From NCBI GenBank assembly GCA_025358255.1, contig JANYKC010000086.1, positions 24,698 through 88,697 on the forward strand: a DNA stretch of 64,000 nucleotides, given 5' to 3'. Below are positions 13,450 to 32,338 of the stretch, in pieces. A program made the translations under genes and the position numbers. This DNA comes from Spirochaetaceae bacterium. GTDB taxonomy: Bacteria; Spirochaetota; Spirochaetia; Treponematales; Rectinemataceae. How positions within the stretch are numbered: position 1 is the stretch's first letter; every line of letters starts with the position of its first letter. The notes under the pieces are model-generated. The model did no database searches. It was not told the DNA's origin and saw nothing but the letters and a program-made list of their open reading frames with translations.

Positions 13450-13506
13450 AGGGACGGGCCAGAATCATGGGAAAGCACCCGATGTTATGTTGCCGGGTCA
13501 GTAATG
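13399..13506. repeat. 108-nt compound inverted repeat (long imperfect hairpin)
   Basis: Outer 18-bp perfect arms cattactgacccggcaac / gttgccgggtcagtaatg. Inner arms cccatgattctgaccc / gggccagaatcatggg (one mismatch). Confidence 0.7.
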
Positions 13507-13792: not shown

Positions 13793-15730
13793 ATGGCGGA
13801 AAAAAAGCGAATTCTCATAGTCGGCGGCGGTTACGGCGGCGTTTGGGCCGGCAAGATCCTGGAAAAGCATTTCCGCAAAGTCCTGGATGTCGAGATAACC
13901 CTTGTTGATCGACATCCCTACCATACCCTCATGACCGAGCTTCATGAAGTGGCCGGCTGGCGAACCGAACCCGAGTCCGTCCAGGTCAGTTTCAAGCGGA
14001 TCTTTGGCGCCAAGCGCATCAGGATCGTGACCGATTCCATCGAGAAAGTCGATTTCGAGGCCAAGGTCGCCAAGTCCTCCCGGACCAGCTATCCCTTCGA
14101 CTACGTCATCGTGGGCAGTGGCGCCGAGCCCGAGTATTTCGGTATTCCCGGCGTCCAGGACAATTCCTTCGCGCTCTGGTCCTTTGAGGACGCCATGCGG
14201 ATCCGCCATCACCTGGAGGATTGCTTCGCGAAAGCGGCCATGGAAACCGATCCCGCAGCCCGCAGGAAGCTCCTCAACTTCGTCGTGGCCGGCGCGGGTT
14301 TCACGGGCATGGAGATGATCGGAGAGCTCCTGGAATACCGCAAGGTGATGTGCCGCAAGCACCACCTTGACCTCGCCGAGACACGGGTCATCGTCGTCGA
14401 AGCGCTGCCCACCATCCTTCCCATCCTTGAGGAACCCCTCCGCGTCAGCGCCGAGACCTACCTCAAGAAACATGGTTGCGAGATGATGATCGGCAGGTCA
14501 ATCATCGGCGCGGAGAAAGGCAAGGTCCTCCTCAAGGATGCGGAACCCCTCGAGACCGAAACCTTCATCTGGACCTGTGGCGTCAAGGGCTCATCCTTCG
14601 CTGGATCCCTCGTTGTCCCCTGCGGCAAGCGCAACCGTCTCGAGGCCGATGCCGAGATGAAATGCTCCAAGTATCCCTTCGTCTACATCGTCGGGGACAA
14701 CTCCGGCTACCTCCACGATGGCAAGCCCCTTGCCCAGATCGTCGAGACCGCCCACTTCACCGCGGAAGCTGCCGCCAAGAACATCATCGCGGACATCGAT
14801 GGCGGAGCGCGCCACGTATTCAAGCCCAACTACCACGGCGTCATGGTGTCGCTGGGAAGCCGCTATGGCGTTTCCAACGCCGGAAACATGCAGACCAAGG
14901 GCTTCTTCGCCTTGGCGATCAAGCATTTCATCAACCTCTTCTACCTGTTCAACATCGCCGGCGCGAACCAGTGCTGGGAATACTTCAAGCACGAGTTCCT
15001 CGACATCAAGGACGGCCGGTCCATCGTCGGTGCGCTCTTCGCCTACAAGGTCCGCGGCTACTGGCCCCTCCTCCTCCGCATGTGGCTTGGCTTCATGTGG
15101 TTCGTCGAGTCGATGAACAAGATCAAGGAAGGCTGGCTCGACTTCTCCACGGGGACGAGCAAGTCCGCGTGGCTCTTCTCTCCCGGCGTCGTCCAAGCTG
15201 GCCTCAAGATCGCGGATGCGGGCTCCGCCGCGTCGGAAGCCGTCGCCGCAGCGCCCGCCGTCGTCGACGCTACCGCAGCCGCCTCGGCAGCCGCCACAGG
15301 CGCTGCCCCCGCCGCCACGGCAAAGGCCACCATCTTCCTCGATACGGCCAAGGCCATCATCGACCCGAATTCCGGTTTCGCGACCTGGTTCCGCCACACC
15401 TTCATGGACGGCATCTTCGCCCTCCTTCCCTACAGCGCCATGCAGATCATGGTCGTCGTGATGGAAGGCCTCATCGGGCTTGCCCTCTTCGGCGGCTTCT
15501 TCACCTGGTGGGCAGCGGCCGCCTCGATCGCCATGTGCTTCCTCTTCACCTTCAATGGGATGTTCATGTGGAGCCAACTCTGGTTCCTCTTCGCCGGAAT
15601 CCTGATGCTCGGCGGTGCCGGACGTTCCTTCGGCATGGACAACTGGTCGGTCCCCTTCTTCAAGCGCTGGTGGAACGGCACCCGCCTTGCCAGGAAATTC
15701 CATCTCTATTGCGACGATCCCTCAAAATAA
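13793..15730 (+). CDS. type II NADH dehydrogenase (NDH-2)-like flavoprotein fused to a DoxX/DoxD-like membrane domain
   Basis: ILIVGGGYGGV and FVVAGAGFTGME Rossmann motifs. The C-terminal roughly 230 aa are polytopic (WPLLLRMWLGFMWFVES..., GGAGRSFGMD) and interrupted by an Ala-rich linker. Confidence 0.8.
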   Translation: MAEKKRILIVGGGYGGVWAGKILEKHFRKVLDVEITLVDRHPYHTLMTELHEVAGWRTEPESVQVSFKRIFGAKRIRIVTDSIEKVDFEAKVAKSSRTSYPFDYVIVGSGAEPEYFGIPGVQDNSFALWSFEDAMRIRHHLEDCFAKAAMETDPAARRKLLNFVVAGAGFTGMEMIGELLEYRKVMCRKHHLDLAETRVIVVEALPTILPILEEPLRVSAETYLKKHGCEMMIGRSIIGAEKGKVLLKDAEPLETETFIWTCGVKGSSFAGSLVVPCGKRNRLEADAEMKCSKYPFVYIVGDNSGYLHDGKPLAQIVETAHFTAEAAAKNIIADIDGGARHVFKPNYHGVMVSLGSRYGVSNAGNMQTKGFFALAIKHFINLFYLFNIAGANQCWEYFKHEFLDIKDGRSIVGALFAYKVRGYWPLLLRMWLGFMWFVESMNKIKEGWLDFSTGTSKSAWLFSPGVVQAGLKIADAGSAASEAVAAAPAVVDATAAASAAATGAAPAATAKATIFLDTAKAIIDPNSGFATWFRHTFMDGIFALLPYSAMQIMVVVMEGLIGLALFGGFFTWWAAAASIAMCFLFTFNGMFMWSQLWFLFAGILMLGGAGRSFGMDNWSVPFFKRWWNGTRLARKFHLYCDDPSK

Positions 15731-15855: not shown

Positions 15856-16863
15856 ATGACTGATTTCTGGAAAGACAACCCGCGCCTTGGCGAGCGGCTC
15901 GCCAAGGTCGCCGGGATAATGGACGAGACGATCAGGACCGACGGCTTTCCCCTCGCCGACGCGGTTTCCGTCCTCATCGACTCGAAGGGAAAGATGCTCA
16001 GGCCGGCCTTCCTCCTCATCGGTTCGGACTTCGGCCAAGGCCCTGGTTCAGCCCGCGCCAAGAAGCTGGTACAAGAGCGGGTGCTTGCCCTTGCCGCAGC
16101 CGTGGAACTCCTCCATGTCTCTACCCTGATCCACGATGACGTCATCGACGACGCCGACCTCAGGCGCGGGAAGCCGACCCTCCACACGCTCTTCGGGACC
16201 AAGGAAGCCATCCTCGCGGGCGACTGGCTGTTCTCCCGCTGCTTCACGCTCGCTGCGGAAAGCTCGGACCCCCAAGGCGCCCGGGCCCTTTCGAGGGTCA
16301 TCGCCGCGATCTGCTCCGCCGAGATCAGGCAGGACCTCGACAAGTGGAGCTATTCGACGAGCGTCCGCGCCTACCTGCATAAAATCGCAGGGAAGACAGC
16401 GGCCCTTTTCACCCTGTCCCTGCAAGTCGGCGCGCAGGAAGCCAAGGCGCCGGCCAAGCAGACCGAGCACCTTCGCAGGGCCGGCTATGATATCGGCATG
16501 GCCTTCCAGATCATCGATGACATCCTGGATTTCGAATCGAGCCTTGGGGTCATGCGGAAACCGGTGGGCAAGGACCTGGCAGAAGGCCTGTGCACCCTTC
16601 CTCTCATTTACGCGCTCAAGGAAGACGAGGTGGGCATGCGCCGCCTCATTGCTGCGATCAGGCCCGACGGCGCGGGCATCGACCAAGGAGCTGTGGCGGC
16701 TGTCATCGAGCGCTGTATGGAACTTGGAGCCATCGAATCGGCAAAGAAGGAAGCCCTACGCTTTACCGATCGCGCCCGTTCGGAAATCCTCCGCCTTCCG
16801 AAAGGTCCATCGCGTGACGACCTCGCCTGGATTGCGGAGCGGCTCCTGAACCGCGACTATTGA
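15856..16863 (+). CDS. polyprenyl diphosphate synthase (trans-isoprenyl, long-chain type)
   Basis: First and second Asp-rich motifs LIHDDVIDDADLRRG and FQIIDDILDF. Confidence 0.9.
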   Translation: MTDFWKDNPRLGERLAKVAGIMDETIRTDGFPLADAVSVLIDSKGKMLRPAFLLIGSDFGQGPGSARAKKLVQERVLALAAAVELLHVSTLIHDDVIDDADLRRGKPTLHTLFGTKEAILAGDWLFSRCFTLAAESSDPQGARALSRVIAAICSAEIRQDLDKWSYSTSVRAYLHKIAGKTAALFTLSLQVGAQEAKAPAKQTEHLRRAGYDIGMAFQIIDDILDFESSLGVMRKPVGKDLAEGLCTLPLIYALKEDEVGMRRLIAAIRPDGAGIDQGAVAAVIERCMELGAIESAKKEALRFTDRARSEILRLPKGPSRDDLAWIAERLLNRDY

Positions 16864-19016
16864 TTTCGCGGGGGCACCGGCATGCCCAGCCGGGAAAGGA
16901 CGTGCCAGGAAGGCACGGGTGCCGGCTTGTAGAATGCGAAGCAGCAGAAGGACGCGATGGGTGCGAGGCGCGCCAGTTCCACCAGGATGGCATGGGCCGA
17001 CGGGCCAACCGCCTCACAACCCCGCATTGTCAGGACCAAGGGTCGCCTCCTCCTGCCCAGCGAAGCAAGGACCAACGCCGATCGCATTGCCCCTTCCGTC
17101 GACTCGGTCCAATCAGGATCTGGCTCCTCCCCGTCTGAACCCAGAAGCAGCGCTCCCAGCGGCGCCGCCGAAAATGCGCCTGCACGGTCAATGAGCCTCA
17201 GTCGCTTCGCAAGCACGGCGCGTGCCTGCGGGGATTCGTAGGAAAGCCCCTCGGCCAGGGAGCTTCGGAGCAACCGGAGGAGATCGGTGGCATCGGCTCC
17301 TGCGCGCACCGTTCCCAAGTCGGCTACAAGGCCTCGCGCGCGGAAACGCGCGAAAATGCGGGCGAAGGCCACGGCACCCGGGCCTGGCGGCGGTTCCTGG
17401 ATGAAGCGGAACGCTCCGGTGCCCTTGAACGCGTGGGTAAACGCCCCTTCCATGCCCGCAACGACAGTTTCAAGCAAGGCCGCGTAGGGCCTCCACGAGA
17501 CGCCCCCGGCATCGACATTTTCCTGGATGAGGTCGGATTTCTTCCGCCGGCGAGGAGCCGGATCAGAGGCAAAGGCACCAACCGTGATGGGTGCGGCCCT
17601 GGGTGGCTCGGGCGTCATGAAGCGCGGTGGCTGACGCGTTGCCTTGCCGACAGCCGGGGCCTCGGTTGAGGTGGCAGCGGAACCTGCCTTGCCCGCCACA
17701 GGGCCGTTCTCGGTGTCAAAGCCCTTGCCGGCACCTGGGACACCGGCATCACCACCTTCAGCGATTGGCGGCGGCCTAAGCCCGTCTTCATGCCCGGCCG
17801 CCGCCTTCCCGCGCGTGGACAGGATCGTCGGGGCTGGGCTTTCTGGGATCGGTGCATTGGGGCGCCTTGAAGCCGTCTCGCCCTTGAGGCTCCTGACCGC
17901 CTCTTCTATATAGCTGTCCAGGTTCCGGCGGCCATCGTCCTCATCCCCCTCTGCCTCGGCGGCTTCCATCCGGTCCACTTCCGTGGGGGACTCGAAATCC
18001 TCCACAGGGAAAAGAAGGATTGGACCGGGAGTCGATGGAGCCATCCAAGCCTGGGAAAGGGAACGGAAATAGTCTGCGGTATCGAGGCTTTTTATGGCTT
18101 GGGTGGCGTCCACCCTGTCCTTTCCAAGGTTCAGGACAAGAAGCTCGGCGACGGGATCCACTTCTCCCCGCGCCAGGATATCCCGACGCCTCTCGTCCAT
18201 GAAGGCCCGTAGCTCCGCGATCAGCTCCAGCACCTCCGAAGGCCTTTGCCTCGGATCTTTTCGCAGCGCCTTGAGGACAACCCTCGATACCGAAAGGGGC
18301 ACGCCACGGCGAGAAAGCGCTTTGGAGACATAGGAAAGGCTCACTGAACCCGTTTTTGCCCGCTTCGCGGTCGAATAGGGCAACTTCCCGACAATAAAGC
18401 GGAATAGATGGACTGCCAGCGAATAGATGTCGCTCCGCCGGTCACCTTTGCTCCCTGACTTGATCTCGGGCGCGACGTATGCCCAGTTCTCGAAGATGCT
18501 TCGCGCATCTGTTTCGGCCAGGTAGCGAAGGAAAGGCAGGTAGCCGGGCTTTTGGATGCGTATCGTATCCACGATTCCGGCTTGGCACGTCACCAGGACA
18601 TTCTCGGCATTGAGGCAGCCATAGACAATGCCGCGTTTGTGGAAGGCATCGAGCCCTTGGCCAAGCTCGATGACGAAGCGGCAGGCATGCTCCAGCCTGA
18701 TTTGCGGGGAAGCGCCATAGTAGGCCAAAAGATGGCGCTGGCCGCCGAACTCCGCCCCAATAAAGCTTCGTTCACCCCAGCGCTCGATCTCGACAAAGTC
18801 CATGATCGCGGGAGCGGTTATGGAATAGGAATCCATCGCCAGCTTCCTGAACTCATCCAATCCGGCTTCGAAACCCATGCCTGTCTTGATGAAGCGGAGC
18901 AGGAACTGCGTGGCCGAATATATCGAACTCGCCCTCCATAGCTCGCAGACACTGTCTTCCCCGAGATTTTCCTGGAGGATATAGCACTGATTGACCATCA
19001 ACCGGGGCTCAAGCAT
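16857..19016 (-). CDS. Hanks-type Ser/Thr protein pseudokinase with a degenerate AAA_16/STAND-like C-terminal region
   Basis: Kinase fold landmarks retained (APE: YVAPEIKSG; DIYSLAVHLF; DPRQRPS). The catalytic loop is HKRGIVYGCLNAEN (no Asp) and there is no DFG. In the C-terminal region, EPPPGPGA replaces a P-loop and LVLTMRGCE replaces Walker B. ATG at 19016 chosen because the TTG at 19061 lies inside a terminator. Confidence 0.7.
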   Translation of the reverse strand: MLEPRLMVNQCYILQENLGEDSVCELWRASSIYSATQFLLRFIKTGMGFEAGLDEFRKLAMDSYSITAPAIMDFVEIERWGERSFIGAEFGGQRHLLAYYGASPQIRLEHACRFVIELGQGLDAFHKRGIVYGCLNAENVLVTCQAGIVDTIRIQKPGYLPFLRYLAETDARSIFENWAYVAPEIKSGSKGDRRSDIYSLAVHLFRFIVGKLPYSTAKRAKTGSVSLSYVSKALSRRGVPLSVSRVVLKALRKDPRQRPSEVLELIAELRAFMDERRRDILARGEVDPVAELLVLNLGKDRVDATQAIKSLDTADYFRSLSQAWMAPSTPGPILLFPVEDFESPTEVDRMEAAEAEGDEDDGRRNLDSYIEEAVRSLKGETASRRPNAPIPESPAPTILSTRGKAAAGHEDGLRPPPIAEGGDAGVPGAGKGFDTENGPVAGKAGSAATSTEAPAVGKATRQPPRFMTPEPPRAAPITVGAFASDPAPRRRKKSDLIQENVDAGGVSWRPYAALLETVVAGMEGAFTHAFKGTGAFRFIQEPPPGPGAVAFARIFARFRARGLVADLGTVRAGADATDLLRLLRSSLAEGLSYESPQARAVLAKRLRLIDRAGAFSAAPLGALLLGSDGEEPDPDWTESTEGAMRSALVLASLGRRRRPLVLTMRGCEAVGPSAHAILVELARLAPIASFCCFAFYKPAPVPSWHVLSRLGMPVPPRNQ

Positions 19017-19059
19017 GGGAAAAATACCGCCGCCGTGATTGACTTGGGCCACGCGGGCC

Positions 19060-19093
19060 AAAAAAAAGGGGCGGGCCCGATGGAAGCCGCCCC
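19060..19093 (-). terminator. rho-independent terminator after paralogue A
   Basis: Minus strand: GGGGCGG...CCGCCCC 7-bp GC stem followed by 8 U. Confidence 0.75.
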
Positions 19094-19116
19094 CTCATGT
19101 TCAAGAAAGCCGTTTC

Positions 19117-19818
19117 CTAGATGTCGATCTTCGGGACGTTCGGCATGATTTCATTCTTGGTATAGTCGCCGCGCACAAGGAGGACATCGGGGATGGACTC
19201 GTTGAGCTTCTTGGTCATGTCCAGGAACTTGCCGCGGATATTGTTCGCTTGGAGGGCGACGTCCTGTATCTCACGGGACGGCATCGGCTTCTGGGGTTCG
19301 ATGAGACCCGCGACCCGGTCGAGGGTGGACAGGACGGTCCGGTTCAAAGGCTCCATCTGGTCCTTCGACTTGTCGAGGTGCTTTCCAAGGTTGTTCACGT
19401 CATTGACCGTAAGGGGATAGAGGCGGTAGCCCTCTTCCGGGACGGCATAGCAGAACGAGAGCAATCCATAGATTATGACCAAGGCCTTCGGATAGACCTC
19501 TCCGGACTTCCACTTCGTCAGCATCCGGAAGCATTCCTGGAGCATGAAGGTGTTCGGCTGGATGCTCCCGAACATCTTGGCGGGGTCCTTGTCGCCGATA
19601 AGGGCATCGATGACCCAGCGGTTGCCGGATTCGATAAGGTGGAAGAAAATGGGATAGTTGTCAGGAGTAAGACCGACCTTGTTTACGAGGTAGTGGGCGA
19701 AAGCGACGGCGGCAAACGCGCTGTATCCATCGCCGCTCGTGATTATGTCGTTTATGTAGCCGAGCGCGAGGTTATCGATCTCACCCTCGGACCAGAGCGG
19801 CCAAGCGGAACCGGACAT
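19117..19818 (-). CDS. uncharacterised paralogue family protein, copy A (233 aa)
   Basis: Aligns end to end with the ORFs at 19881, 20613 and 23326 (NYPIFF, WVIDAL, IQPN, EVYP, EGYRLY, DVNNLGKHL, NRTVL, NNIR, IPDVLL). GGAGG upstream of the start. Confidence 0.8.
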   Translation of the reverse strand: MSGSAWPLWSEGEIDNLALGYINDIITSGDGYSAFAAVAFAHYLVNKVGLTPDNYPIFFHLIESGNRWVIDALIGDKDPAKMFGSIQPNTFMLQECFRMLTKWKSGEVYPKALVIIYGLLSFCYAVPEEGYRLYPLTVNDVNNLGKHLDKSKDQMEPLNRTVLSTLDRVAGLIEPQKPMPSREIQDVALQANNIRGKFLDMTKKLNESIPDVLLVRGDYTKNEIMPNVPKIDI

Positions 19819-19841
19819 CCTTCATCCTCCTCTCTGGATAG

Positions 19842-19873
19842 AAAAAAGCGCCGCGCCTTGAAGCGCGGCGCTT
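19842..19873 (-). terminator. rho-independent terminator/attenuator between paralogues B and A
   Basis: Perfect 11-bp stem aagcgccgcgc / gcgcggcgctt with a 6-nt loop and a U-run on the minus strand. Only about 24 nt remain before the copy A start codon. Confidence 0.75.
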
Positions 19874-19880
19874 GGATCGC

Positions 19881-20588
19881 TTACTTCGCGGCCTCTTCCA
19901 CAGGCAACCGCTTGCGGGGCTGGACGTCCTTGTCGAGGTTGGGCTCCGTGCGGAGCAGAACCTCGGGGATGATGTCCACGAGCCGCTTCGTGCTGTCGAA
20001 GAAGTTGTTGCGGATGTTGTGGGCGTGCACGGCCAGGTCTTCCATGTCCTCGTCGATGTTCTGTCCCTCGAGTGAGGAGACCTTGTCGAGGATGTCGAGG
20101 ATGGAGCGGTTCAGGAGATCGTCCTGCCCCTTCTCCTCGTTGAGATGCTTGCCGAGTGCGTTTACGTCCGCGACGGAGGGAGGATAGATCTTGTAGCCAT
20201 CCAGGGGCGAGTTATAGGCCGCCTGGAAGACACCGAGGATGATCCCCAGGGTCTTCGGATAGATCTCGCCCTTGCGGTACTTCGTGAGGATGCTGAAACA
20301 GGTCGCGACGATGAAGTAGTTCGGCTGGATCGAACTCATGAAGAGGAAGGGGTCGCGTGTCCCGAGAAGGGCATCGATCACGTGGTGATTGCGCACGGTG
20401 AGGATGTTGAGGAAAACGGGATAGTTCCCGTTCGTGATCCCCGTGAAATTCAGATAGCTGGCATAGGTAATCGCCGCTTCGACCGCTTCAACCGAGCGGC
20501 AGCCGATGATTCCCTTGAGCATGCTATATTCGATGTTCTGGACTTCGGACTCGTTCCAGTCCTGTTTCTTTTCGAACAGCTCTTTCAT
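19881..20588 (-). CDS. uncharacterised paralogue family protein, copy B (235 aa)
   Basis: Shares the family motifs (NYPVFL, HVIDAL, IQPN, EIYP, DGYKIY, DVNALGKHL, NRSIL, HNIR, IPEVLL). Confidence 0.8.
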   Translation of the reverse strand: MKELFEKKQDWNESEVQNIEYSMLKGIIGCRSVEAVEAAITYASYLNFTGITNGNYPVFLNILTVRNHHVIDALLGTRDPFLFMSSIQPNYFIVATCFSILTKYRKGEIYPKTLGIILGVFQAAYNSPLDGYKIYPPSVADVNALGKHLNEEKGQDDLLNRSILDILDKVSSLEGQNIDEDMEDLAVHAHNIRNNFFDSTKRLVDIIPEVLLRTEPNLDKDVQPRKRLPVEEAAK

Positions 20589-20612
20589 ACGGTAGCTCCT
20601 TTCCTACGCCGG

Positions 20613-21323
20613 TTAGTCTGTGTAAATCTGACGGGGCGCCGTTTCTTTGGCGATGTAGTCAGATTTGACAAGCAGGACTTGCGGAATAACGTCCTCCATC
20701 TTCTTTCTCTTGTCGAAATAGAAGGTACGGATGTTGTTCGCCTGGCGCGCCATCGTTTCCTTCTCGGGATCCCCGGAGGTGCCAGCCAGATGGCCGAGGC
20801 GATCGAGAATGTCGAGGATGCAACGATTGTTCGGATCGTCCTGCCCGGTTTCCTTGTTCAGGTGTTTCCCGAGGTTGTTGACGTCGTTGATGGAGACGGC
20901 ATAGATCTTGTAGCCATCTTTGGGCGACGCGGCAGCTCCCTGGAGAACGCCGAGAACGATGGAGAGCGTGACGGGATAAATTCCGCCCGGGTGCCAGTTG
21001 GTAAGCAGCTTGTAGGCCGTGAAAATGAGATAGCTGTTCGGCTGGATGGGGCTGATGATGAGAAATGGATCCTTCGCACCGACCATCGTATCGATGACCC
21101 AGTGGTTTTCCACCTCAAGCAGCTTGAGGAAGAGGGGATAGTTGTCGTTGCTCAAACCCGACAAGCTCAAGAACCTGGCAAAGCTGATGGAGGCCTCGAC
21201 GGCTTCCTCAGTACGGCTTCCGAGCATGTTCTGCACGATGCCGAGCTCGACCTGCATAATGGTCTCTTTGGACCAGGTCCTTTCATTAACCTTTTCTGTC
21301 TGTTTGTCCATCATGACCTCCAC
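20613..21323 (-). CDS. uncharacterised paralogue family protein, copy C (about 233-236 aa)
   Basis: Shares the family motifs (NYPLFL, WVIDTM, IQPN, GIYP, DGYKIY, DVNNLGKHL, NRCIL, NNIR, IPQVLL). GGAGG lies inside the first codons, so the real start may be the ATG at 21314 or 21311. Confidence 0.8.
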   Translation of the reverse strand: MEVMMDKQTEKVNERTWSKETIMQVELGIVQNMLGSRTEEAVEASISFARFLSLSGLSNDNYPLFLKLLEVENHWVIDTMVGAKDPFLIISPIQPNSYLIFTAYKLLTNWHPGGIYPVTLSIVLGVLQGAAASPKDGYKIYAVSINDVNNLGKHLNKETGQDDPNNRCILDILDRLGHLAGTSGDPEKETMARQANNIRTFYFDKRKKMEDVIPQVLLVKSDYIAKETAPRQIYTD

Positions 21324-21364
21324 ATGGCGATGAACCCACGAGTTGCACTCGATTCCTGCGGAAA

Positions 21365-21393
21365 ATTGTAGGTCGAGGTAGGGACCAAGTCAA
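21365..21393 (-). promoter_or_regulatory. strong sigma-70-type promoter upstream of paralogue C
   Basis: Minus strand: TTGACT, 17 nt, TACAAT, about 40 nt upstream of the copy C start. Preceded by an 8-bp hairpin ccaagtca/tgacttgg. Confidence 0.6.
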
Positions 21394-21410
21394 GGGAATT
21401 CTGACTTGGG

Positions 21411-22331
21411 CTATTTTTTATCCTGATACATGTTGATAAAGCTCGATCCGAACATGGAATAATCGGCGTCGTGGCTTAAATCCTCGCTTTGCGCTGCCGG
21501 CTTGATCATCCGGCGGAAGTACTCGTCGATATAAGCCCGTCGGGAAAGGATATTGGAGGCGATACGGGCCGAGTACTCCTCAGGCTCGGGCAGGAATCCT
21601 TTCAGGACGCCGAGGGCAAGCGCCGAGATCGTATCCGCCGGTATATCGGACAGGGCCTTGAGCCTAGCTTCGAAAACCTCGATGCCGACGCCGTGGAAAT
21701 GATCGGGCCTGAGAAGTGTGAGGAAGCGGGTTTTTTCCTGCCTGAACCAACCGAACTTGTCAGGATTGCCCGTGATTTTCATCTTGTCGGACTCAAGGTC
21801 CGCCTTGTCATAATCGATGGCCACCACAAAAGGCACATTTGCCTTGTTGTGGATGACAAGGTAATTATTTGGGTTCCTGTCCTCGTCGAAATAGAGCCAG
21901 CGATTGACGAGGTCGGCCCGGAGGATGTCCACAAAAGGCTGGGCCAGGTAATTATAGGAAGAAATCTGGATGGAGTTGCGGACAACCTTTGTCGCGCGGT
22001 AGGGCTTGTCGCCGATGCGCACCAAGGTGGTCGGCGCCGCCAGGGTACCCATGGCATGGTCAAGCAGGAAGGCAAGCCCGCAAAGGCGGTGGTAGACAAT
22101 CTCCTTCTCGTTCAGGGCGGGCTTGAGGATCCAGGGATGTCCTTCCCCGTCCTCCGCACCGATGTAGCCCTTCACTTGGGCGTTGAAAGGGACTGCATCC
22201 TGGCTTTCGGTTATGCGGAGCGCGATCCTGTCCAGGTGGAGCCTGAGCTCGAGGGCAGGCAAGCGCAGATAGAAATATTCCACAAGCTCGGCATCCCCGA
22301 CCAGCGCCGCCACTTTTTCCCGCTCATCCAT
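21411..22331 (-). CDS. atypical kinase-like protein (PI3/PI4-kinase-like catalytic core)
   Basis: Candidate ATP lysine in HPWILKPA, Glu in NEKEIVYHR, catalytic loop FDEDRNPNNYLV (compare DRHxxN), metal-binding VAIDYD (compare IDFG). GGAGG 9 nt upstream. 8-nt overlap with the phosphatase gene. Confidence 0.5.
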   Translation of the reverse strand: MDEREKVAALVGDAELVEYFYLRLPALELRLHLDRIALRITESQDAVPFNAQVKGYIGAEDGEGHPWILKPALNEKEIVYHRLCGLAFLLDHAMGTLAAPTTLVRIGDKPYRATKVVRNSIQISSYNYLAQPFVDILRADLVNRWLYFDEDRNPNNYLVIHNKANVPFVVAIDYDKADLESDKMKITGNPDKFGWFRQEKTRFLTLLRPDHFHGVGIEVFEARLKALSDIPADTISALALGVLKGFLPEPEEYSARIASNILSRRAYIDEYFRRMIKPAAQSEDLSHDADYSMFGSSFINMYQDKK

Positions 22332-23280
22332 AATAATAGACCTCCGGCTTCTTGGGGATTCCTACCTTCACGACGAGCTCTCCACCCTCGAAGGTGAGGA
22401 AAGGCGCCTGGCTACCTGATCCCGAGTAGATGATATGATGGTTCTTGATGCCGACCACGTCCTTCCAGAATCCGACCGTGTTGCCATCGCCCCACAAAGG
22501 GTTGTGGCCGACCACGAAATGCGTCTCAGGTGGCATATTGAGCATTTCAAGGGCAAGCTTGATGTCGCGGCCGCCGTATTCCTTGGGGCTTGGGGTTCCG
22601 TCCCGGAATTCGTTGACCCGAGTCCACATGAGCTGGTGGTATTTCTCCGGGTAGCGCCTGATGTCCACAAGCTCCTGCCGATCCAGGCCGCCATGGGGAG
22701 GGCCGGCATGGGTTATGACAAAGTTCTCGCCCATGACAAAGATCGGGAGGGCCTCAAAAAAGCGCTGAACGGCCGCCACGTACTCGGGACCTCGCTTGGC
22801 CAGGAGAAGCATCTTGAATTCAAGGCCTTGGGCTATGCCGCTCTTGCGGAGACGCTCGTCAAAGGTGTCGTGGTTGCCGCGAAGGTAATGGATATGGCCG
22901 TCGTAGCGGTCGAGGAGCCGGAACAGCTCTTCGAGGATTGCGAGGGAGGAATCCATCTCCTTCATGTGTCCGGTACGATCGTCGTGCTCTATGTCGCCGA
23001 CGATGATGCACTCGATGGCACCTGCTTCGAGGTCGGCACGGTTGGTTCCGAAGTCGAAGATCCTGTTGAGATTCTCCAAGTTGGCGTGGAGGTCCCCGAT
23101 GATGATGGGTCTTGCCTTTTTGGGCAATTCGATGAGGCCGCCGGGCCGCTTTTCAGAATCGCCCGGACGATAGGGATCCGATTCGACGACTTCGATGGCC
23201 CTCTCAATGAGGGCAACACCTTCAAGGGGACCCTTCGCGGTCGCTTTCGCCACCCCCGCGGGATCGGGCTTTCGGGACAC
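22324..23280 (-). CDS. PPP/calcineurin-like Ser/Thr (metallo)phosphatase
   Basis: GDLHAN, GDIEHDD, GNHD, ITHAGP and VVGHN motifs in canonical order. GTG start preceded by AGGAGG. Confidence 0.8.
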   Translation of the reverse strand: MSRKPDPAGVAKATAKGPLEGVALIERAIEVVESDPYRPGDSEKRPGGLIELPKKARPIIIGDLHANLENLNRIFDFGTNRADLEAGAIECIIVGDIEHDDRTGHMKEMDSSLAILEELFRLLDRYDGHIHYLRGNHDTFDERLRKSGIAQGLEFKMLLLAKRGPEYVAAVQRFFEALPIFVMGENFVITHAGPPHGGLDRQELVDIRRYPEKYHQLMWTRVNEFRDGTPSPKEYGGRDIKLALEMLNMPPETHFVVGHNPLWGDGNTVGFWKDVVGIKNHHIIYSGSGSQAPFLTFEGGELVVKVGIPKKPEVYYYG

Positions 23281-23325
23281 GAGAACCTCCTGGGGCCGCC
23301 TTCGATCGAGCCCTCGTGAGGACTC

Positions 23326-24285
23326 CTAACTCCTGGAACGCTTCTTTGAAGCCGCCGGCTTGGCGCTCCCTTTCTTCCCCGCCTGCCTTGGCGTCGCCTT
23401 GGATGGCGCTACCTTGACCGGCGGAGCCTTCGCGGGCGCGGCCTTGGCGCTCGGCGTCTTGGCCGTCGGCTCCTTGGCCTCTGGAACCGCGACAGGCACT
23501 TCAGGCTGGGGTACCGTGACAGATACCGGCCCGGTGGTTTCGCGCACGAATCGACCGGCTGAATCCCGCTTTCGCAGCCGCCTATTGGCCACGAGATCGG
23601 CGTAATCCTCTTCAGGCCGAACCTTTCCGTGATCTGGGACCCGGACGAGCAGGGGATGGGGGATTGCGTCGACGAGCTCCCGGGTCGTATCGAAATAGGC
23701 GAATCTGACATTGAATGCATGCTTGGAGAGCACGCTCTTGTCCTGTTCGCCATAATACTCGCCGAGGTGGGTGATCCTGTCAAGAATCTCCAGGATGAGG
23801 CGATTCTGGGCATTGTCCTGTGATTCGTTTTTCAGGAGGAACTTGCCCAGGGCGTTGATGTCCATGATCGTGAGGCGACGGATGCGATATCCGTCGTCTG
23901 GATCGAAATAGGCGCTTTCGATGATGCCGAGCAGGGCTTCAAGGGCCAGGGGATAAAGTTCCTCCGGATGGCGCGAATACAGGGTCTGGAAAGCCAGCTC
24001 GATCAGCTCGGCTTCTGGACGTATCGTGGAGAAGAGGAGCCGTGCCTGACGCTCGTGGAGAAGCTCATCGATCACCCAGGGGTTGTTGGTCATGATGAGG
24101 CGGAGGAAAAGCCAGTAGTTCTCGTTGTTGAGGCCGAAGCGGTTGAGGTAGCGCGCGAAAGCGACGGAACATTCGACCTGGGCTTCGGTCATGCAGGTAA
24201 ATAGGGCTTCCCGCACGTAGAACGCGTTGTCCCGGATGAGTCGCTTGTCGCTGTCTGATATCGCGGACCCGCTCTTTAGTGACAT
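23326..24285 (-). CDS. uncharacterised paralogue family protein, copy D (319 aa) with Ala/Pro/Lys-rich basic C-terminal tail
   Basis: Family motifs present but divergent (NYWLFL, WVIDEL, IRPE, ELYP, DGYRIR, DINALGKFL, NRLIL, FNVR, IPHPLL). Tail reads PEAKEPTAKTPSAKAAPAKAPPVKVAPSKATPRQAGKKGSAKPAASKKRSRS. ATG at 24285 is preceded by AAGGGGAAGGTGGGA. Confidence 0.8.
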   Translation of the reverse strand: MSLKSGSAISDSDKRLIRDNAFYVREALFTCMTEAQVECSVAFARYLNRFGLNNENYWLFLRLIMTNNPWVIDELLHERQARLLFSTIRPEAELIELAFQTLYSRHPEELYPLALEALLGIIESAYFDPDDGYRIRRLTIMDINALGKFLLKNESQDNAQNRLILEILDRITHLGEYYGEQDKSVLSKHAFNVRFAYFDTTRELVDAIPHPLLVRVPDHGKVRPEEDYADLVANRRLRKRDSAGRFVRETTGPVSVTVPQPEVPVAVPEAKEPTAKTPSAKAAPAKAPPVKVAPSKATPRQAGKKGSAKPAASKKRSRS

Positions 24286-24309: not shown

Positions 24310-24424
24310 GGCAGGAGAGTCGGGGGGAATGAGCGGTAGGTACCTGGAATCCACGCTGGGAGTATGGCACGGCTTGAATCGAGACGCAACTTGACCGCGA
24401 CCGCACAGGGACAGTAAGGTGCCC
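24310..24424 (+). promoter_or_regulatory. candidate yybP-ykoY (Mn2+) riboswitch in the mntP leader
   Basis: GGAGAGUCG (compare GGGGAGUAG), CACGGCUUGA (compare CCGGCUUUG), UUGACC (compare UUGACA), GGGACAG (compare AAGAC). Possible P1 pairing GGCA...UGCC overlaps the mntP RBS AAGGUG. Confidence 0.4.
24361..24389 (-). promoter_or_regulatory. candidate sigma-70 promoter for the paralogue D-phosphatase-kinase operon
   Basis: Minus strand: TTGCGT, 17 nt, CATACT. Confidence 0.3.
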
Positions 24425-24427
24425 GCA

Positions 24428-25015
24428 ATGTCCACCTTCCTTCTTATCGCCCTCGGCCTGGCAATGGACGCCTTCGCCGTCTCCATCTCGAGCGGGATCT
24501 GCATCCCCCGCCTTGAGCTCCGCTTCGCCCTGCGGGCGGCTTTGGCCTTCGGCCTGTTCCAATTCGGCATGCCGGTCGCGGGCTGGCTCCTTGGCATGTC
24601 GTTCCGCGGCCTTATCCAGGGTTTTGACCACTGGATCGCCTTTGGCCTCCTTGCCATCGTCGGGGGGAAGATGATCGTCGAATTCGTCCGGGACTCGGCC
24701 AAGCCGCAGGAAGCCTGCGACGATGGCGAAAGGCCGCGCCGCAGCATCCTCACCTGGAGGGGCCTCCTTGTACTGGCTGTGGCCACGAGCGTGGACGCCT
24801 TGGCCGTCGGGCTTTCCTACAGCCTCCTCGGGACGGCGATACTCCAGCCCGCGGCCATCATTGGCGTCGTTACATTCGCGCTTTCTTTGGTCGGGTGCGA
24901 GTTCGGCAAGAGGATAGGGCAGAAATTCGAGGGCTGGGCGGAGCTGGCCGGGGGCATAGTCCTCGTGGGCATCGGCGCGAAGATCCTGGTCGAGCACCTG
25001 GCGAAGGGACTATAG
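24428..25015 (+). CDS. mntP: manganese efflux pump MntP
   Basis: Duplicated LAMDAFAVS / VATSVDALAVG motifs, about 6 TM helices. ATG at 24428 sits 6 nt after TAAGGTG. The track's GTG at 24419 is less likely. Confidence 0.85.
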   Translation: MSTFLLIALGLAMDAFAVSISSGICIPRLELRFALRAALAFGLFQFGMPVAGWLLGMSFRGLIQGFDHWIAFGLLAIVGGKMIVEFVRDSAKPQEACDDGERPRRSILTWRGLLVLAVATSVDALAVGLSYSLLGTAILQPAAIIGVVTFALSLVGCEFGKRIGQKFEGWAELAGGIVLVGIGAKILVEHLAKGL

Positions 25016-25024: not shown

Positions 25025-26884
25025 CTAGAGCAAGGCGGTTTTAAGGAGTCCTGGGCCTACCTTGCAGGCCGATTCGAAAATGCCTGGCCAGGCAATAAGC
25101 AGCTCTCCAAATCGCAGGAAATGCTCGGCAAGCCTGGTTTTCGCCTCGCCTGCGACCATCCCTCCAAATTCCGGGGGAATCCAAAATCCAGGAGCTTCAA
25201 GCTTCGAGCATAGGGCTCGGATCGTTGCCTCGATGTCCAGAGCCCAGGCTTCGGGCATCCTTCCATAATCCGAGAGCGCCATTTCAAGCGTATCGATCCT
25301 GGCCATGATCAGGCGTGCCGCCGCCTCGGACAGGGCGAGGCGCAAGCCCGATCGTGGTCCCCGTGCCAAGGACGCCAGCCTCCGGCCAAGGGTCTCGTAG
25401 GCGCAAGGGCCGGCTTCGAGCCGGTTTGCGATCAATCCCATCACCGCTCCGAGGATTTCGTTCAACAGGAGATGATGGCGGCTCGGGTCACGCGCGGGCC
25501 CACGACGGACGCCTGTGGGAACATGGTGGATGGCCTGGGCCGGATAGGCGATGGCTTGCTCGGGATGGAGGTAACCCAGGGATGCGGCCCAGAGGCCGTC
25601 CTCGTAGGCTCCCCAAGGCGCGAAGGGCGGGAGGAGGGACCTTGCATCCAGTGCGATGTGCATACCCATGAGGCCCTTCCCCCCGATCGTCGTCCGGCGC
25701 GGCGCGCGGAAAAGCAGTTCGCTCTCCCTTGCCTTCGCATAGACTCCATCCCCGTAAACATCCTGGTCGCCCGCATCGACCGCCGCGCGCATCGATAGGA
25801 GGTAATATACCGAGGCCGTGCCGGAGGCGCCCCAGGTGCCGAAGCAGAGCGCCGCGACTCGGGAGTTCCCCGATAGAGCCGCGGACAGGAGGGCCGCAGT
25901 TGCATTCCTGAAATCCTTTTCATTTGCCTCGGCGAGGATATCGCGGACGAGCCTCCCAAGAAGCCGCCGGTGCGGACAGAGGACTCCCTCGGCAGAGCTT
26001 TGAGATTCCGCTCCGGGTAATCCCCACGAACCGAGCGCTTCGCTGTCGGCGAAGGGCGTCGGCAAGGCCGGATCCTGATCGGCGCTTAGCGCTATGCCGG
26101 GACAGGCATCGGGACGGAGACGGAAGGCGGCGACCGTATCGTCATCGGCCATCGCCACGGTCCTTCCTGCGGCCGCCATGAGGGCAAGATTGCGCGCCGC
26201 GCCGTAGCTGGCGATCCCCGGTCCCGGGCTGCCTTCGAGGCCGAGGGCAAAGGATGCTTCGCGGCCAGGCTTTGCCTCCAAGGCATCGGCAAGTCGGTGC
26301 CTGAAAGCGCGGTCGAGGTGGTAGACCTTGCCTGGATGGGAAGCGGCGAAAGCAAGGGCGATGGCTCGGGTGGCAGTCGGATCCTGGACCGAGTCATCGG
26401 CGATCAGGAAATCCGGCGTCGCGGTCCCATTGAAAGCACCGGCATCGGCCCAGGATCCGAGGGCGCGTCCAAGGCTATCTGGCCGGTCTCTCGTTGGCCA
26501 AGCGATGCAGGAAAGGCCCGGACCCGCCGAGACGGAAGCCACCGGCGCTTCCTTTTGGCCATCGAGGCAATCCCCAAGCCGGAGCAAAAAACCCCGAGCC
26601 TCGAGGTCTTTTATCATGTCCGGCAGGGTCGACAGGGCCTCGCCTTCCCAACCGCTTTTCCCTAGCCGCCGCTCCAGTTCTTCGAGCCCACGTGGCCTTT
26701 CGAGGGCCTGGAGGAGGGCGGCTTCGGTGGGATCCGGCAGCCGAAGCCCGCCATCCGCTCCGATCGCCGCGATACGGCCACCCGGGGCGTCGCCAAGGAA
26801 GCGGAATGGACGGGCCATCGGCGTATCGGTTCCAGGAAAGAAAGTCCGCGCCCAGTCGCCGGGCGCGGAGCGGGATTCCTTCAT
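25025..26884 (-). CDS. PqqD/RRE-like N-terminal domain fused to a GT-A (family 2-like) glycosyltransferase-like protein
   Basis: N-terminus LLQALERPRGLEELERRLG...DMIKDLEARGFLL resembles PqqD-type peptide-binding domains. Then IAWPTRDRP, LIADDS, GAARNLAL and MADDDT match the order of GT2 motifs. Large unassigned C-terminal region. Confidence 0.45.
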   Translation of the reverse strand: MKESRSAPGDWARTFFPGTDTPMARPFRFLGDAPGGRIAAIGADGGLRLPDPTEAALLQALERPRGLEELERRLGKSGWEGEALSTLPDMIKDLEARGFLLRLGDCLDGQKEAPVASVSAGPGLSCIAWPTRDRPDSLGRALGSWADAGAFNGTATPDFLIADDSVQDPTATRAIALAFAASHPGKVYHLDRAFRHRLADALEAKPGREASFALGLEGSPGPGIASYGAARNLALMAAAGRTVAMADDDTVAAFRLRPDACPGIALSADQDPALPTPFADSEALGSWGLPGAESQSSAEGVLCPHRRLLGRLVRDILAEANEKDFRNATAALLSAALSGNSRVAALCFGTWGASGTASVYYLLSMRAAVDAGDQDVYGDGVYAKARESELLFRAPRRTTIGGKGLMGMHIALDARSLLPPFAPWGAYEDGLWAASLGYLHPEQAIAYPAQAIHHVPTGVRRGPARDPSRHHLLLNEILGAVMGLIANRLEAGPCAYETLGRRLASLARGPRSGLRLALSEAAARLIMARIDTLEMALSDYGRMPEAWALDIEATIRALCSKLEAPGFWIPPEFGGMVAGEAKTRLAEHFLRFGELLIAWPGIFESACKVGPGLLKTALL

Positions 26885-26893: not shown

Positions 26894-28087
26894 TTAGATA
26901 GGACCATGGGTATACGAATCGATCGTCCCTCCGACTTCGAACTCGAAACCATAGGAGTTGCCGAGGCTATCCTGGAAGTTGATCCTGAATCGCTTGCGGA
27001 AGGTGTACAAGGGCGGGCTGTAGGGGAAGGAGCCATTGGCGCCGTTGATGATCGTGAAAGACGCAGGGGTATCGATGGTCACCGGAGTCCCCGATGAAAT
27101 TCCCCCGATGCTGAGCGCCGCGATTGGATCAAAAGTATAGGTACCGCCGACCTTGTACCATCCGCCGAGCTCCTCGATATCGCGCACCGTCAGATAGAGG
27201 GCTGTATCATTATAGATGTCCAATGTCCTCGTTCCGATCGCATTATAGCCCAGGTATTCCATGGGGGCGTAATCGCCATTGTACAAGGTGGTTCCTGAAG
27301 AGGAGTCGTTCAGGTAGACGTTCGAACCGCCGACTCCGAACGATTGGACTGGACCTACATAGACTGTCGCGCCCTTGAACAGGATGGCCACGTTCCAGGT
27401 TGTCCCGCCATCCGAAGAGGTACGCATGTATGCGTCGCCGGAGATGTAGGACGCATGCCAGCTCGCCGATCCATCGACGCTGTACTCGATCTGCAAGTTC
27501 GGCGCGTCGGCGCCGCTTGCCCCGGTTATCCGTAGCGCTCCGCTCCAGGTCGCGCCGCCATCCACGGAGGTCCTGAGGTAATTGTCACCCGTGGCGTTGA
27601 TGGCATGCCAGGCGGTCAAACCGTCGATGCTATAGCCGATCTGGAGAAGGGGAGCGTCCGAGCCGGTGGCACCGACAACCAGGAGGGCGGCGCTCCACGT
27701 CGTGCCGCCGTCCACCGAACTGCGGATGTACCTGTCACCCGTGGCAAAGGCCTCATGCCAACCCGTTGTCCCATCGACGCTGTATTCCAGTTGCAGGGCG
27801 GGGGCGGCCGCGCCAGTGGCGCCGGCGGATCCGGCGACCCGCAATCCCTCGCTCCAGGTCAGGCCGTCGTCCACGGACATGCGGATGAAGCTATCACCGG
27901 AAACGCTAGCCACGTGCCAGTCTGCCACGCCGTCTGCGCTGTATTCGATCTGGAGCAGGGGTGCGTCGGCTCCGCTTTCGAGCCCCAAGAGGCCCGCAAG
28001 GTTCGAGCATCCAAAGGCCAGGATCGCAAGGGCTACACAAATCGCCGCCAAAAAAGCTTCGGGCCGGGTCTTTTTTTTCCCATGCAC
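26894..28087 (-). CDS. lipoprotein with four Asp-box (BNR, SxDxGxTW) repeat units plus an unassigned C-terminal domain
   Basis: Signal peptide with lipobox LAFGC. Four 44-48 aa repeats of LQIEYSxDG..WH....GD.Y.R.S.DGG.TW. The stop is 9 nt before the start of the next gene. Confidence 0.75.
   Translation of the reverse strand: MHGKKKTRPEAFLAAICVALAILAFGCSNLAGLLGLESGADAPLLQIEYSADGVADWHVASVSGDSFIRMSVDDGLTWSEGLRVAGSAGATGAAAPALQLEYSVDGTTGWHEAFATGDRYIRSSVDGGTTWSAALLVVGATGSDAPLLQIGYSIDGLTAWHAINATGDNYLRTSVDGGATWSGALRITGASGADAPNLQIEYSVDGSASWHASYISGDAYMRTSSDGGTTWNVAILFKGATVYVGPVQSFGVGGSNVYLNDSSSGTTLYNGDYAPMEYLGYNAIGTRTLDIYNDTALYLTVRDIEELGGWYKVGGTYTFDPIAALSIGGISSGTPVTIDTPASFTIINGANGSFPYSPPLYTFRKRFRINFQDSLGNSYGFEFEVGGTIDSYTHGPI
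27421..27964 (-). repeat. four tandem coding repeats of about 135 bp (Asp-box units)
   Basis: Repeated protein units visible in the translation of 26894..28087. Confidence 0.7.
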
Positions 28088-28226: not shown

Positions 28227-29369
28227 TCAGTTCTTGAGCTCCGAGAGCTTGATGGGCTTGGGCTCGTTGTCCTCGCCTTCGAGCTTCCGGAGCTCCTCAA
28301 GCAGTTCTTTTCCTTTCCGGGAGAGCTTCTGGGGGACCTGGACGAGAAGCTTGAGGTACAGGTCCCCGCGGCGGCCGGACGGGGACGGCACGCCCTCCTC
28401 GCGGACACGCAGCATGCGGGCGTTCTGGGAGCCTGAAGGAATGCTGACCGCGATCTTCCTGCCTTCTATCGTGGTGAAATTGATGTCCCCGCCGAGCGCC
28501 GCCATCGTGAGGCTGATGGGGAGGGCGCAGTACAGGTCATTTCCGTCCCGTTCGAAATACTCATGTGGCCGGACGCGGATGAATACGTAAAGATCGCCGG
28601 CCGCGCCGCCGTTGGGACCTGAATCCCCCTGGCCGGGGATGACGACCCGCTTGCCGTCCTCGACGCCGGCCGGGATGGTCACCTTGATCTTCTGCTTTTT
28701 CTTCGCCAGCCCAGAGCCATCGCAGTCCCGGCAGGGCTTCTCGATCACATAGCCTTCCCCTCGGCAGGAAGGACAGGTCTGGGCGATGGAAAAGAAGCCG
28801 GAGCTCCTGCGGACCTGGCCCGAGCCCTGACAGGTCGGGCAGACATGTCGTGCAGACCCGTCAGCCGATCCAGAACCCGTACAAGTCTTGCAGACGTCAT
28901 TCTTGCCGTAGACAATCTCCCGGGAAGCGCCGAATACGGCCTCTTCGAAGGGGAGCTCCAGGTCATAGCGGAGGTTGGACCCGCGGGCGGTACGCTCATG
29001 GCCACCGCCGCCGGAAGCCCCGCCGCGGCGGCCGCCGCCGAAGAAGGAATCGAATATGTTGGAAAAATCCCCAAAACCGAAGATGTCCTCGAAGTCCTTG
29101 AAGACAGTAGAGAAGTCCTGGGGGTTGCCTGCCCCGCCCATGCCCTCCACACCGGCGAAGCCGAAGCGGTCGTAAGCGCCTCGCTTCTGCTCGTCGGCCA
29201 GGACCTCGTAGGCTTCGGTGGCTTCCTTGAAGCGCTCCTCGGCCGCGTGATCGCCGGGATTCTTGTCGGGATGGTTCGCGATGGCGAGGCGGCGGTATGC
29301 CTTCTTGATGTCATCCTTCGTAGCGCCTTTTTCGACGCCGAGGACTTCGTAATAATCACGCTTGGCCAC
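28227..29369 (-). CDS. dnaJ: molecular chaperone DnaJ
   Basis: J domain with HPDKNP, G/F-rich region, four CxxCxGxG zinc-finger repeats. Confidence 0.97.
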   Translation of the reverse strand: MAKRDYYEVLGVEKGATKDDIKKAYRRLAIANHPDKNPGDHAAEERFKEATEAYEVLADEQKRGAYDRFGFAGVEGMGGAGNPQDFSTVFKDFEDIFGFGDFSNIFDSFFGGGRRGGASGGGGHERTARGSNLRYDLELPFEEAVFGASREIVYGKNDVCKTCTGSGSADGSARHVCPTCQGSGQVRRSSGFFSIAQTCPSCRGEGYVIEKPCRDCDGSGLAKKKQKIKVTIPAGVEDGKRVVIPGQGDSGPNGGAAGDLYVFIRVRPHEYFERDGNDLYCALPISLTMAALGGDINFTTIEGRKIAVSIPSGSQNARMLRVREEGVPSPSGRRGDLYLKLLVQVPQKLSRKGKELLEELRKLEGEDNEPKPIKLSELKN

Positions 29370-29427
29370 GTAAGATCCTTATAATGCGAATGGTGGACGG
29401 TGCTCGCCACCATCCACCGATTCTCTG

Positions 29428-32283: not shown

Positions 32284-32338
32284 CTTTCCACCTGGGTGTG
32301 GCCCGGTTGAGCCTTTTTAGTATCCATAAAATAATAAA

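Follow-up and report, generated by a model that had tools for sequence, protein, structure and literature searches.

Which role could be played by four related proteins that fit no described family and are encoded around a kinase and a phosphatase? This question is raised by a gene cluster of a Spirochaetaceae bacterium (family Rectinemataceae; GenBank assembly GCA_025358255.1, contig JANYKC010000086.1, positions 24,698 to 88,697), located in a stretch of 64,000 nucleotides that is called the window here and whose first letter is position 1. A description made from the DNA letters (the sequence-only reading) had assigned six co-oriented minus-strand genes to the cluster, four of them encoding the paralogues (A to D) and two encoding an atypical kinase-like protein (K) and a metallophosphatase (P). 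All six open reading frames (ORFs) exist where they had been placed; the adjacent gene at 16857-19061 had been missed, and the module comprises seven co-oriented genes on the minus strand (16857-24285), in the order D, P, K, C, B, A and a gene for a protein with a Pkinase domain (Table 1).

Conservation, distribution and origin of the module

The most striking feature of the locus is that the orphan proteins C and B are, as judged from sequence identity, under more constraint than Hsp70 (DnaK). The genes for DnaK, DnaJ or GrpE are present in the flanks of some loci and were compared as a benchmark in the same genome pairs. Here, C and B were 88-95% identical compared to 83-85% for DnaK, and B reached 92-95% where DnaK showed 83-85%. 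DnaJ (69-83%), GrpE (53-55%) and an IspB-like gene (49-64%) all remained below C and B. Proteins that form many interaction surfaces typically show constraint of this degree along almost their entire length, and proteins evolving slower than Hsp70 are usually central in function. C and B evolve slower than Hsp70, yet their family is nameless and has no recognisable fold.

The unit consisting of the promoter and the genes C, B and A is duplicated in four genomes (L012, L014, L017 and L047), three of which are complete chromosomes of metagenome-assembled genomes (MAGs). The two copies (approximately 2.3 kb each) form a direct repeat flanking the genes for the pseudokinase, a GGDEF protein, D, P and K (in L012 at 788-3104 and 8941-11257). 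Within a genome, the C-B-A copies were 98.9-100% identical, compared to 72-88% between genomes. The copies show concerted evolution, a pattern of highly expressed duplicated genes, which argues for selection on the dosage of C-B-A. A duplication of the same unit is probable in L016, too.

Scanning genomes with the K alignment yielded 106 loci, of which 80 were kept. Spirochaetota account for 77 of these and SAR324 for the other three. The spirochaete carriers are Treponematales-like genomes, Rectinemataceae and Spirochaetales-like genomes, including Marispirochaeta, Alkalispirochaeta and Sediminispirochaeta MAGs. One cultured isolate carrying the family is Treponema sp. J25, which was isolated from a hot spring (PMC8307006). 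At least one paralogue was found within the stored flank in 74 of the 77 spirochaete loci; unlinking of the paralogues from the kinase/phosphatase pair in related genomes, which the sequence-only reading had named as grounds for its own rejection, was thus not borne out. A, B, C, D, P and K are all present in 49 of the 77 loci, the remainder being mostly truncated contigs. The paralogues fall into four orthogroups with one member of each per locus. C, B and A are transcribed in this order throughout the loci, and the D orthogroup is located immediately upstream of P-K in 53 of them. The C-B-A unit is encoded on the other strand in Spirochaetales-like genomes, while deep-branching loci contain five paralogues and retain C→B→A.

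Several loci deviate from this layout or contain additional genes. The order is circularly permuted in L035, L022 and L029, with the pseudokinase gene upstream of D. In about 15 Treponematales-like loci, a small GGDEF protein (PF00990, 9.5e-23; L012 5192-5950, plus strand) is encoded between the pseudokinase and D. Its motif reads GTDEF or SGDEF and its N-terminal segments are hydrophobic (putative membrane anchor); the protein hints at a link of the module to cyclic di-GMP. In the window there is no GGDEF gene between the pseudokinase and D, the nearest homologue being encoded at 42609-43685. About 20 Spirochaetales-like loci encode a conserved protein of about 600 amino acids (aa) without a Pfam match (L062 4383-6218, minus strand), which apparently has a single hydrophobic (putative transmembrane) helix near its C-terminal end. 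Spirochaetales-like loci furthermore contain a short fifth paralogue (about 190 aa) about 2 kb upstream of D; the coordinates listed with these additional genes are L062 1903-2478 (minus strand) and L062 3797-4390 (plus strand). In one Marispirochaeta locus, a phosphothreonine-reading FHA-GerE regulator is encoded near the module.

The cluster had appeared by eye to be less GC-rich than its flanks, and windowed GC calculation confirmed this (0.525-0.589 in the module versus about 0.62-0.67 in the flanks). The GC content at third codon positions (GC3) of the module genes, in turn, is genome-typical (0.72-0.83; DnaK 0.83). The dip is therefore caused by low GC content at first and second codon positions, i.e. 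by the amino acid composition, rather than by foreign origin, and a reading of the cluster as a foreign island was rejected on the basis of the native GC3. Other 1-kb dips (0.547-0.557) are found in the window at 13001-14000, 32001-33000 and 43001-44000, that of the module being the longest. No relatives of the module were found in IMG/VR viral contigs (0) and no matches in PLSDB plasmids. The identity tiers of the module follow taxonomy; it is native, vertically inherited and essentially restricted to Spirochaetota.

Table 1. Genes and signals of the module in the window, with the median amino acid identity of orthologues to the window protein in Treponematales-like (T) and Spirochaetales-like (S) genomes
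Feature	Position	Strand	Size or form	Basis	Identity T	Identity S
Paralogue D	23326..24285	-	319 aa; first gene of the D-P-K unit	ORF and alignment	66%	46%
P, PPP-like (calcineurin-like) metallophosphatase	22324..23280	-	318 aa	PF00149 match	60%	49%
K, atypical kinase, HipA/CtkA/PI4KIIα-like fold	21411..22331	-	306 aa	AF2 and Foldseek	57%	44%
σ70-like promoter, K-C spacer	21365..21393	-	TTGACT-17-TACAAT	consensus match		
Paralogue C	20613..21311	-	232 aa; ORF open to GTG 21323	ORF and alignment	88%	72%
Paralogue B	19881..20588	-	235 aa	ORF and alignment	89%	75%
B-A hairpin (19873-19846)	19836..19873	-	GC-rich 12-bp stem and T-run	predicted		
Paralogue A	19117..19818	-	233 aa	ORF and alignment	74%	50%
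Hairpin followed by T-run, 3' of A	19062..19096	-		window minimum free energy -19.8 kcal/mol		
Hanks-type pseudokinase	16857..18998	-	about 713 aa; ORF open to TTG 19061	start from gene call	32%	25%

The genes flanking the module were not conserved across the loci compared. Beyond the pseudokinase gene, a polyprenyl-synthase-like gene is located in the window, which is adjacent in about six loci. On the other side, the divergently transcribed neighbour of D encodes the manganese efflux pump MntP (24419-25015, plus strand; PF02659, 7e-47). Phosphatases of the class of P are often Mn2+-dependent; the position of MntP next to the module phosphatase is probably coincidental. Further genes on the minus strand encode a 619-aa protein with a sub-threshold match to GT2 (25025-26884), a neighbouring putative lipoprotein of 397 aa, in which a unit of about 50 aa with the pattern S-x-D-G-G-x-T-W occurs four times (26894-28087; Asp-box/BNR-like by eye), and a DnaJ-DnaK-GrpE heat-shock cluster (28227-32283), recognised by sequence and by matches in L001, L011 and L037 and used for the conservation benchmark. 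Two plus-strand ORFs antisense to A-C (19039-20187, 382 aa, and 20145-21371, 408 aa) were judged to be non-coding, since their GC3 values (0.64 and 0.52) are below those of real genes (0.70-0.91); in a GC-rich genome like this one, they probably represent shadow ORFs.

Properties of the module proteins and their expression signals

The proposed four-member family was confirmed by pairwise BLASTP, in which A-D were 36-47% identical (E 4e-35 to 8e-79) and alignable over their whole length, with B and C as the closest pair (47%). Most of the shared motifs quoted for the family are correct, with deviations in single paralogues: D contains NYW instead of NYP and IRPE instead of IQPN, B has HVID instead of WVID, and A reads EGYRLY and NIRGKFLD. 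A Kyte-Doolittle scan gave no clearly transmembrane-like segment of 19 residues in A-D (maximum 1.07-1.65), bearing out the earlier statement that the paralogues have no transmembrane helix. All four proteins are acidic (isoelectric point, pI, 5.2-5.6). D combines a helical core of acidic character (pI 5.2) with a polybasic tail at its C-terminus that is rich in Ala, Pro and Lys (pI 11.6). Among the orthologues of D this basic tail (16-127 aa, pI 10-12) is confined to Treponematales-like genomes and missing in Spirochaetales-like ones. For C, ATG 21311 is most likely the start rather than GTG 21323, since it is preceded by a GGAGG Shine-Dalgarno sequence and was also chosen by independent gene calls.

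The paralogues could not be assigned to any family, as had been stated from the letters, and neither profile nor structure searches placed them in a characterised one. A-D gave zero matches in NCBIfam, PADLOC and PHROGs, and neither A-D nor any of the 35 aligned family members matched Pfam at E ≤ 10. Profile searches of PDB sequences with alignments of four and 35 sequences yielded spurious best matches (E 0.96-1.9). The family is small, with 216 representative clusters among 1.84 billion proteins in an exhaustive search with a hidden Markov model, and every named member is annotated as 'hypothetical protein'. An AlphaFold2 (AF2) model of A, built from the 35-sequence alignment, shows a compact all-helical domain of about ten helices (predicted local distance difference test, pLDDT, 75.9; predicted template modelling score, pTM, 0.70), in which the conserved IPxVLL region forms a C-terminal segment of low confidence. 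Foldseek searches with this model gave no PDB match below E 0.3, all template modelling (TM) scores being below 0.4, and nothing in BFVD. The best of these weak PDB matches were ARM-repeat and designed-repeat proteins. An identity as ARM/HEAT α-solenoid was rejected, given the values of the ARM matches (E 0.35-0.9, TM 0.26-0.38) and the lack of internal repeats, for which hhalign between sub-segments of the paralogues gave probabilities of ≤ 2.2%. An EF-hand reading of the DxNxLGK motif was rejected by eye, because of a mismatch at positions 5 and 8 and because the model shows a helix at this motif. Terpene synthases and other enzyme folds were absent among the Foldseek matches of A, and no Pfam, PDB-sequence or fold match was obtained to the known bacterial cytoskeletal families FtsZ/tubulin, MreB/actin, bactofilin, coiled-coil intermediate-filament-like proteins and ESCRT-III/PspA.

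The promoter and the graded hairpins predicted earlier were found by consensus in the window and are conserved across loci. The promoter precedes C and would drive the C-B(-A) unit; an equivalent site is located in the K-C spacer of other loci (median 10/12 matches; ≥10/12 in 21 of 35 loci). The C-B spacer of about 21-24 nucleotides contains a ribosome-binding site only, and a hairpin was found there in 0 of 60 loci. In the B-A spacer, 44 of 59 loci possess a stable hairpin, in 22 cases with a T-run; this hairpin is likely a partial terminator, an attenuator or a 3'-stabiliser. Hairpins were also detected in 23 of 33 spacers between A and the pseudokinase. From these signals, expression levels in the order C ≈ B > A > pseudokinase would be predicted, with D-P-K as a separate upstream unit.

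The assignment of an atypical-kinase core to the 306-aa protein K proved right in kind. The AF2 model of K (pLDDT 88, pTM 0.86) matched CtkA of H. pylori (1.2e-4), HipA (1.6e-4) and human PI4KIIα (1.9e-4) with probability 1.0 and TM scores of 0.39-0.48 (Foldseek). By sequence, K had no match at E ≤ 1 in Pfam (including HipA_C and PI3_PI4_kinase) and NCBIfam, its profile retrieved nothing from PDB sequences, and it gave no meaningful alignment to a PI4KIIα sequence entered by hand. The motifs DEDRNPNNY (149-157) and ID..k.D are invariant in 79 K orthologues; K70, the Lys in WILKP, is likewise invariant, together with DEDRNPNNY and ID..D (172-175), in 28-79 orthologues. This fits an active atypical kinase, the roles of the catalytic residues being suggested by analogy and not by residue-level superposition. 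K is 304-306 aa long in nearly all listed homologues, and no membrane anchor was found. The K homologues of the SAR324 MAGs (L075, L076 and L080; 32-35% identity) occur without paralogues or P; one of them adjoins a DHH/DHHA1-like and an MtxA-like protein, and one has a sub-threshold match to PI3_PI4_kinase (PF00454, E 0.0085).

P had been described as a canonical PPP (phosphoprotein phosphatase) metallophosphatase. It is a metallophosphatase according to Pfam (PF00149, Metallophos, 46.6 bits with a cut-off of 21.5, E 7.3e-12) and possesses all metal-binding motifs; it appears to be divergent PPP-like rather than canonical, with motif II reading GDIEHDDRTG (with an insertion) and HAG in place of HGG. 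In 73 orthologues the motifs GDLH, GD..H.D.tG, rGNHDtF, tHaGP and VGHNp were found, in which the capital letters are at least 97% invariant. P is weakly similar to the PHROG NinI-like Ser/Thr phosphatase (4.5e-6), and its best and only PDB sequence match is the PPP phosphatase BSU1 (E 1e-3). The 8-nucleotide overlap noted for the phosphatase/kinase pair is real: the stop of P and the start of K overlap in ATGGATGA at 22324-22331, with GGAGG upstream, and an overlap of exactly 8 nucleotides is conserved in 48 loci.

The product of the seventh gene (16857-18998) matches the Pfam Pkinase domain (PF00069, 45.4 bits with a cut-off of 31.7, 8.9e-12). Compared to a PknB reference sequence entered by hand, the VAIK Lys is replaced by Arg, the HRD Asp by Cys and the DFG Asp by Lys. 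In 37 aligned sequences (36 orthologues and the window protein), Asp was found at the HRD position in none, and Arg replaced Lys in 30. Since the same catalytic residues are lost across 36 orthologues, the protein is a conserved pseudokinase. Its degenerate kinase domain lies at the N-terminus and is joined by a disordered, variable linker to a conserved domain of about 200 aa at the C-terminus, for which a sub-threshold match to AAA_16 in a single orthologue (E 0.26) provides a lead only. The gene is present in 49 of the 77 spirochaete loci.

Possible roles of the module

The reading we favour, to which we give somewhat less than an even chance, is that the module serves to form and control an assembly in the cytoplasm, hetero-oligomeric and possibly polymeric, with a core of C and B under the control of K and P; here, we infer the steps beyond the gene-level facts. 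The idea of the sequence-only reading, an abundant assembly of several subunits with a state governed by reversible phosphorylation, gains indirect support from the four ancient, non-redundant orthogroups, the conservation of C and B above DnaK and the concerted evolution of C-B-A. C and B would be produced at high and about equal levels and constitute the core, e.g. a heterodimer or lattice, while A might be a sub-stoichiometric minor subunit produced by read-through past the B-A hairpin. D could be a variant subunit connecting the core to K and P, and in Treponematales its polybasic tail may also provide a link between the core and an anionic surface such as membrane or nucleic acid. K would phosphorylate Ser/Thr on at least one module protein and P would reverse this, switching assembly or activity, with the pseudokinase as a possible scaffold or sensor. 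A more specific version appears doubtful: C and B would be subunits of a hitherto unrecognised polymer or lattice that is found inside the cells of spirochaetes only, has a new fold and follows a heterodimer logic like that of tubulin α/β, A and D would be minor or anchoring subunits, and K, P and the pseudokinase scaffold would switch assembly.

Several observations weigh against such an assembly. About 12-15 polar residues are invariant and common to the paralogues (N54, Y55, N66, D140, N142, K146, Q154, N159, D167, R195 and D200 among them) and could form an active site or ligand pocket instead of interfaces. The monomer model of the paralogue is of moderate confidence only (pLDDT 76), the promoter and terminator calls rest on consensus matches, and the closest folds of K include the lipid kinase PI4KIIα. 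Three deep spirochaete loci contain P-K with no paralogues within 8 kb; together with the K homologues occurring alone in SAR324, this indicates that the enzymes do not strictly depend on the paralogues. Solitary short paralogue-like proteins also exist outside the module: L081 encodes a lone divergent family member of 187 aa (8001-8564) on a contig with 45% GC and no K or P nearby, so that the link of the family to the module and to spirochaetes may not be a strict one. A homologue search with this protein returned only three proteins, without taxon names.

The co-operonic arrangement of kinase, phosphatase and pseudokinase would also be expected if the paralogues were regulatory or targeting subunits (cf. 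cyclins, 14-3-3 or PP2A B-subunits) that steer K, P or the pseudokinase to substrates elsewhere in the cell. The weak best folds, ARM/HEAT-like α-solenoids (probability 0.5-0.66, E 0.3-0.9), are of a phosphatase-regulatory-subunit type, and the FHA-GerE regulator near one Marispirochaeta locus points in the same direction. We regard such signalling adaptors as unlikely, as C and B (88-89%) are far more conserved than the enzymes they would regulate (57-60%), C-B has its own promoter and is duplicated with concerted evolution, and the folds of cyclins, 14-3-3 and PP2A-B are absent from the Foldseek matches, with no internal repeats. Extreme conservation is also shown by central enzymes, and the many polar residues invariant across anciently diverged paralogues would suit a new all-α family of enzymes or ligand-binding proteins, as homo- or hetero-oligomers, that acts in a K/P-switched metabolic or biosynthetic step; the polyprenyl-synthase-like gene adjacent in the window and in about six loci could be seen in this light. 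However, four to five non-redundant paralogues in fixed order are unusual for a single enzymatic step, the paralogues contain no His-, Cys- or metal-type catalytic motif and match no enzyme fold, terpene synthases included, and the flanking genes are not conserved beyond the module, so that this enzymatic role seems improbable.

The fold of K bears on two further explanations. With PI4KIIα among the top fold matches, K might be a phosphoinositide-like lipid kinase, with P and the paralogues acting on or binding the product and the tail of D reading anionic membrane patches; the polybasic nature of this tail and the sub-threshold PI3_PI4_kinase match of a SAR324 homologue would agree with this. 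The scores of the protein kinases HipA and CtkA, however, equal or surpass that of PI4KIIα, a membrane anchor is missing in K, the hand-entered PI4KIIα sequence gave no meaningful alignment, most PPP-like enzymes act on proteins, and the tail is missing in Spirochaetales-like orthologues of D, which leaves lipid signalling very improbable. The HipA-like fold, a GC content below that of the flanks and PADLOC matches of the adjacent kinase domain to generic models of Ser/Thr kinases might be taken to indicate a mobile defence island with K as a toxin kinase and P as its antidote. This is largely excluded: A-D, K and P belong to zero PADLOC families, K is neighboured by P and paralogues rather than by a HipB-like helix-turn-helix partner, GC3 is native, and the module is absent from IMG/VR viral contigs and PLSDB plasmids. 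Moreover, each locus has a single copy, the tiers of identity agree with taxonomy, the conservation above DnaK is the opposite of that of fast-evolving defence genes, and the neighbouring kinase is catalytically dead.

If the preferred reading of a phospho-regulated C/B assembly is true, the module would represent a new structural or organising system in bacterial cell biology and a lineage-specific machine for spirochaete biology. It would also assign a physiological (non-toxin) role to a HipA/PI4KII-like kinase paired with a PPP-like phosphatase. Were the polymer version true, this would in effect be a new bacterial cytoskeletal or organising system.

Comparison with known systems

Full-text literature searches returned no description of the module, in line with the earlier statement that no system of such composition has been described. 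K shares the atypical kinase fold of HipA (E. coli, Shewanella), CtkA (H. pylori) and human PI4KIIα and has an invariant motif resembling a catalytic loop (DxDRNxNN) and an IDxD motif. Unlike HipA and PI4KIIα, it is not detected by the Pfam HipA or PI3_PI4 models or in PDB sequences, it has neither a HipB partner nor a membrane anchor, and it is translationally coupled to a phosphatase, single-copy and vertically inherited. The distribution of the module also differs from that of HipBA, as it is vertical and phylum-restricted rather than mobile or patchy, with no plasmid or viral copies. P shares the motifs GDxH, GD…DR.G, GNH[DE], H and GH with λ phosphatase/NinI, PrpA/PrpB-type and eukaryotic PPP enzymes (BSU1), but differs from all of them in the insertion in motif II, in HAG and in matching the generic Pfam Metallophos model only.

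The seventh gene product resembles bacterial Hanks-type pseudokinases (PMC12599244) in keeping the kinase fold while the VAIK Lys, the HRD Asp and the DFG Asp are lost. Unlike the reviewed pseudokinases, that of the module carries a disordered linker followed by a conserved C-terminal domain whose likeness to AAA_16 is sub-threshold at best; the review does not mention spirochaetes, AAA domains or the gene neighbourhood of the module (PMC12599244).

With tubulin α/β and BtubA/BtubB the paralogues share, in logic only, an ancient adjacent pair (C/B) in apparently equal amounts, exceptional conservation and minor paralogues. They differ from tubulins in having no sequence or fold relation to them and no nucleotide-binding motif, and their polymerisation is hypothetical.

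The actinobacterial pknB-pstP morphogenesis operon encodes a Hanks kinase and a PP2C phosphatase together with FhaA/B, RodA and PbpA. The module is similar to this operon in that a kinase and a phosphatase are co-encoded with the proteins thought to be controlled by them and in its phylum-wide conservation. In contrast to pknB-pstP, the enzymes of the module are HipA-like and PPP instead of Hanks and PP2C, its Hanks-type protein is dead and the partners are an orphan family. While the regulatory enzymes are new representatives of known kinds, no known system accommodates the family of paralogues or the complete module, which is a well-defined target across the phylum even if its function should turn out to lie in catalysis or signalling.

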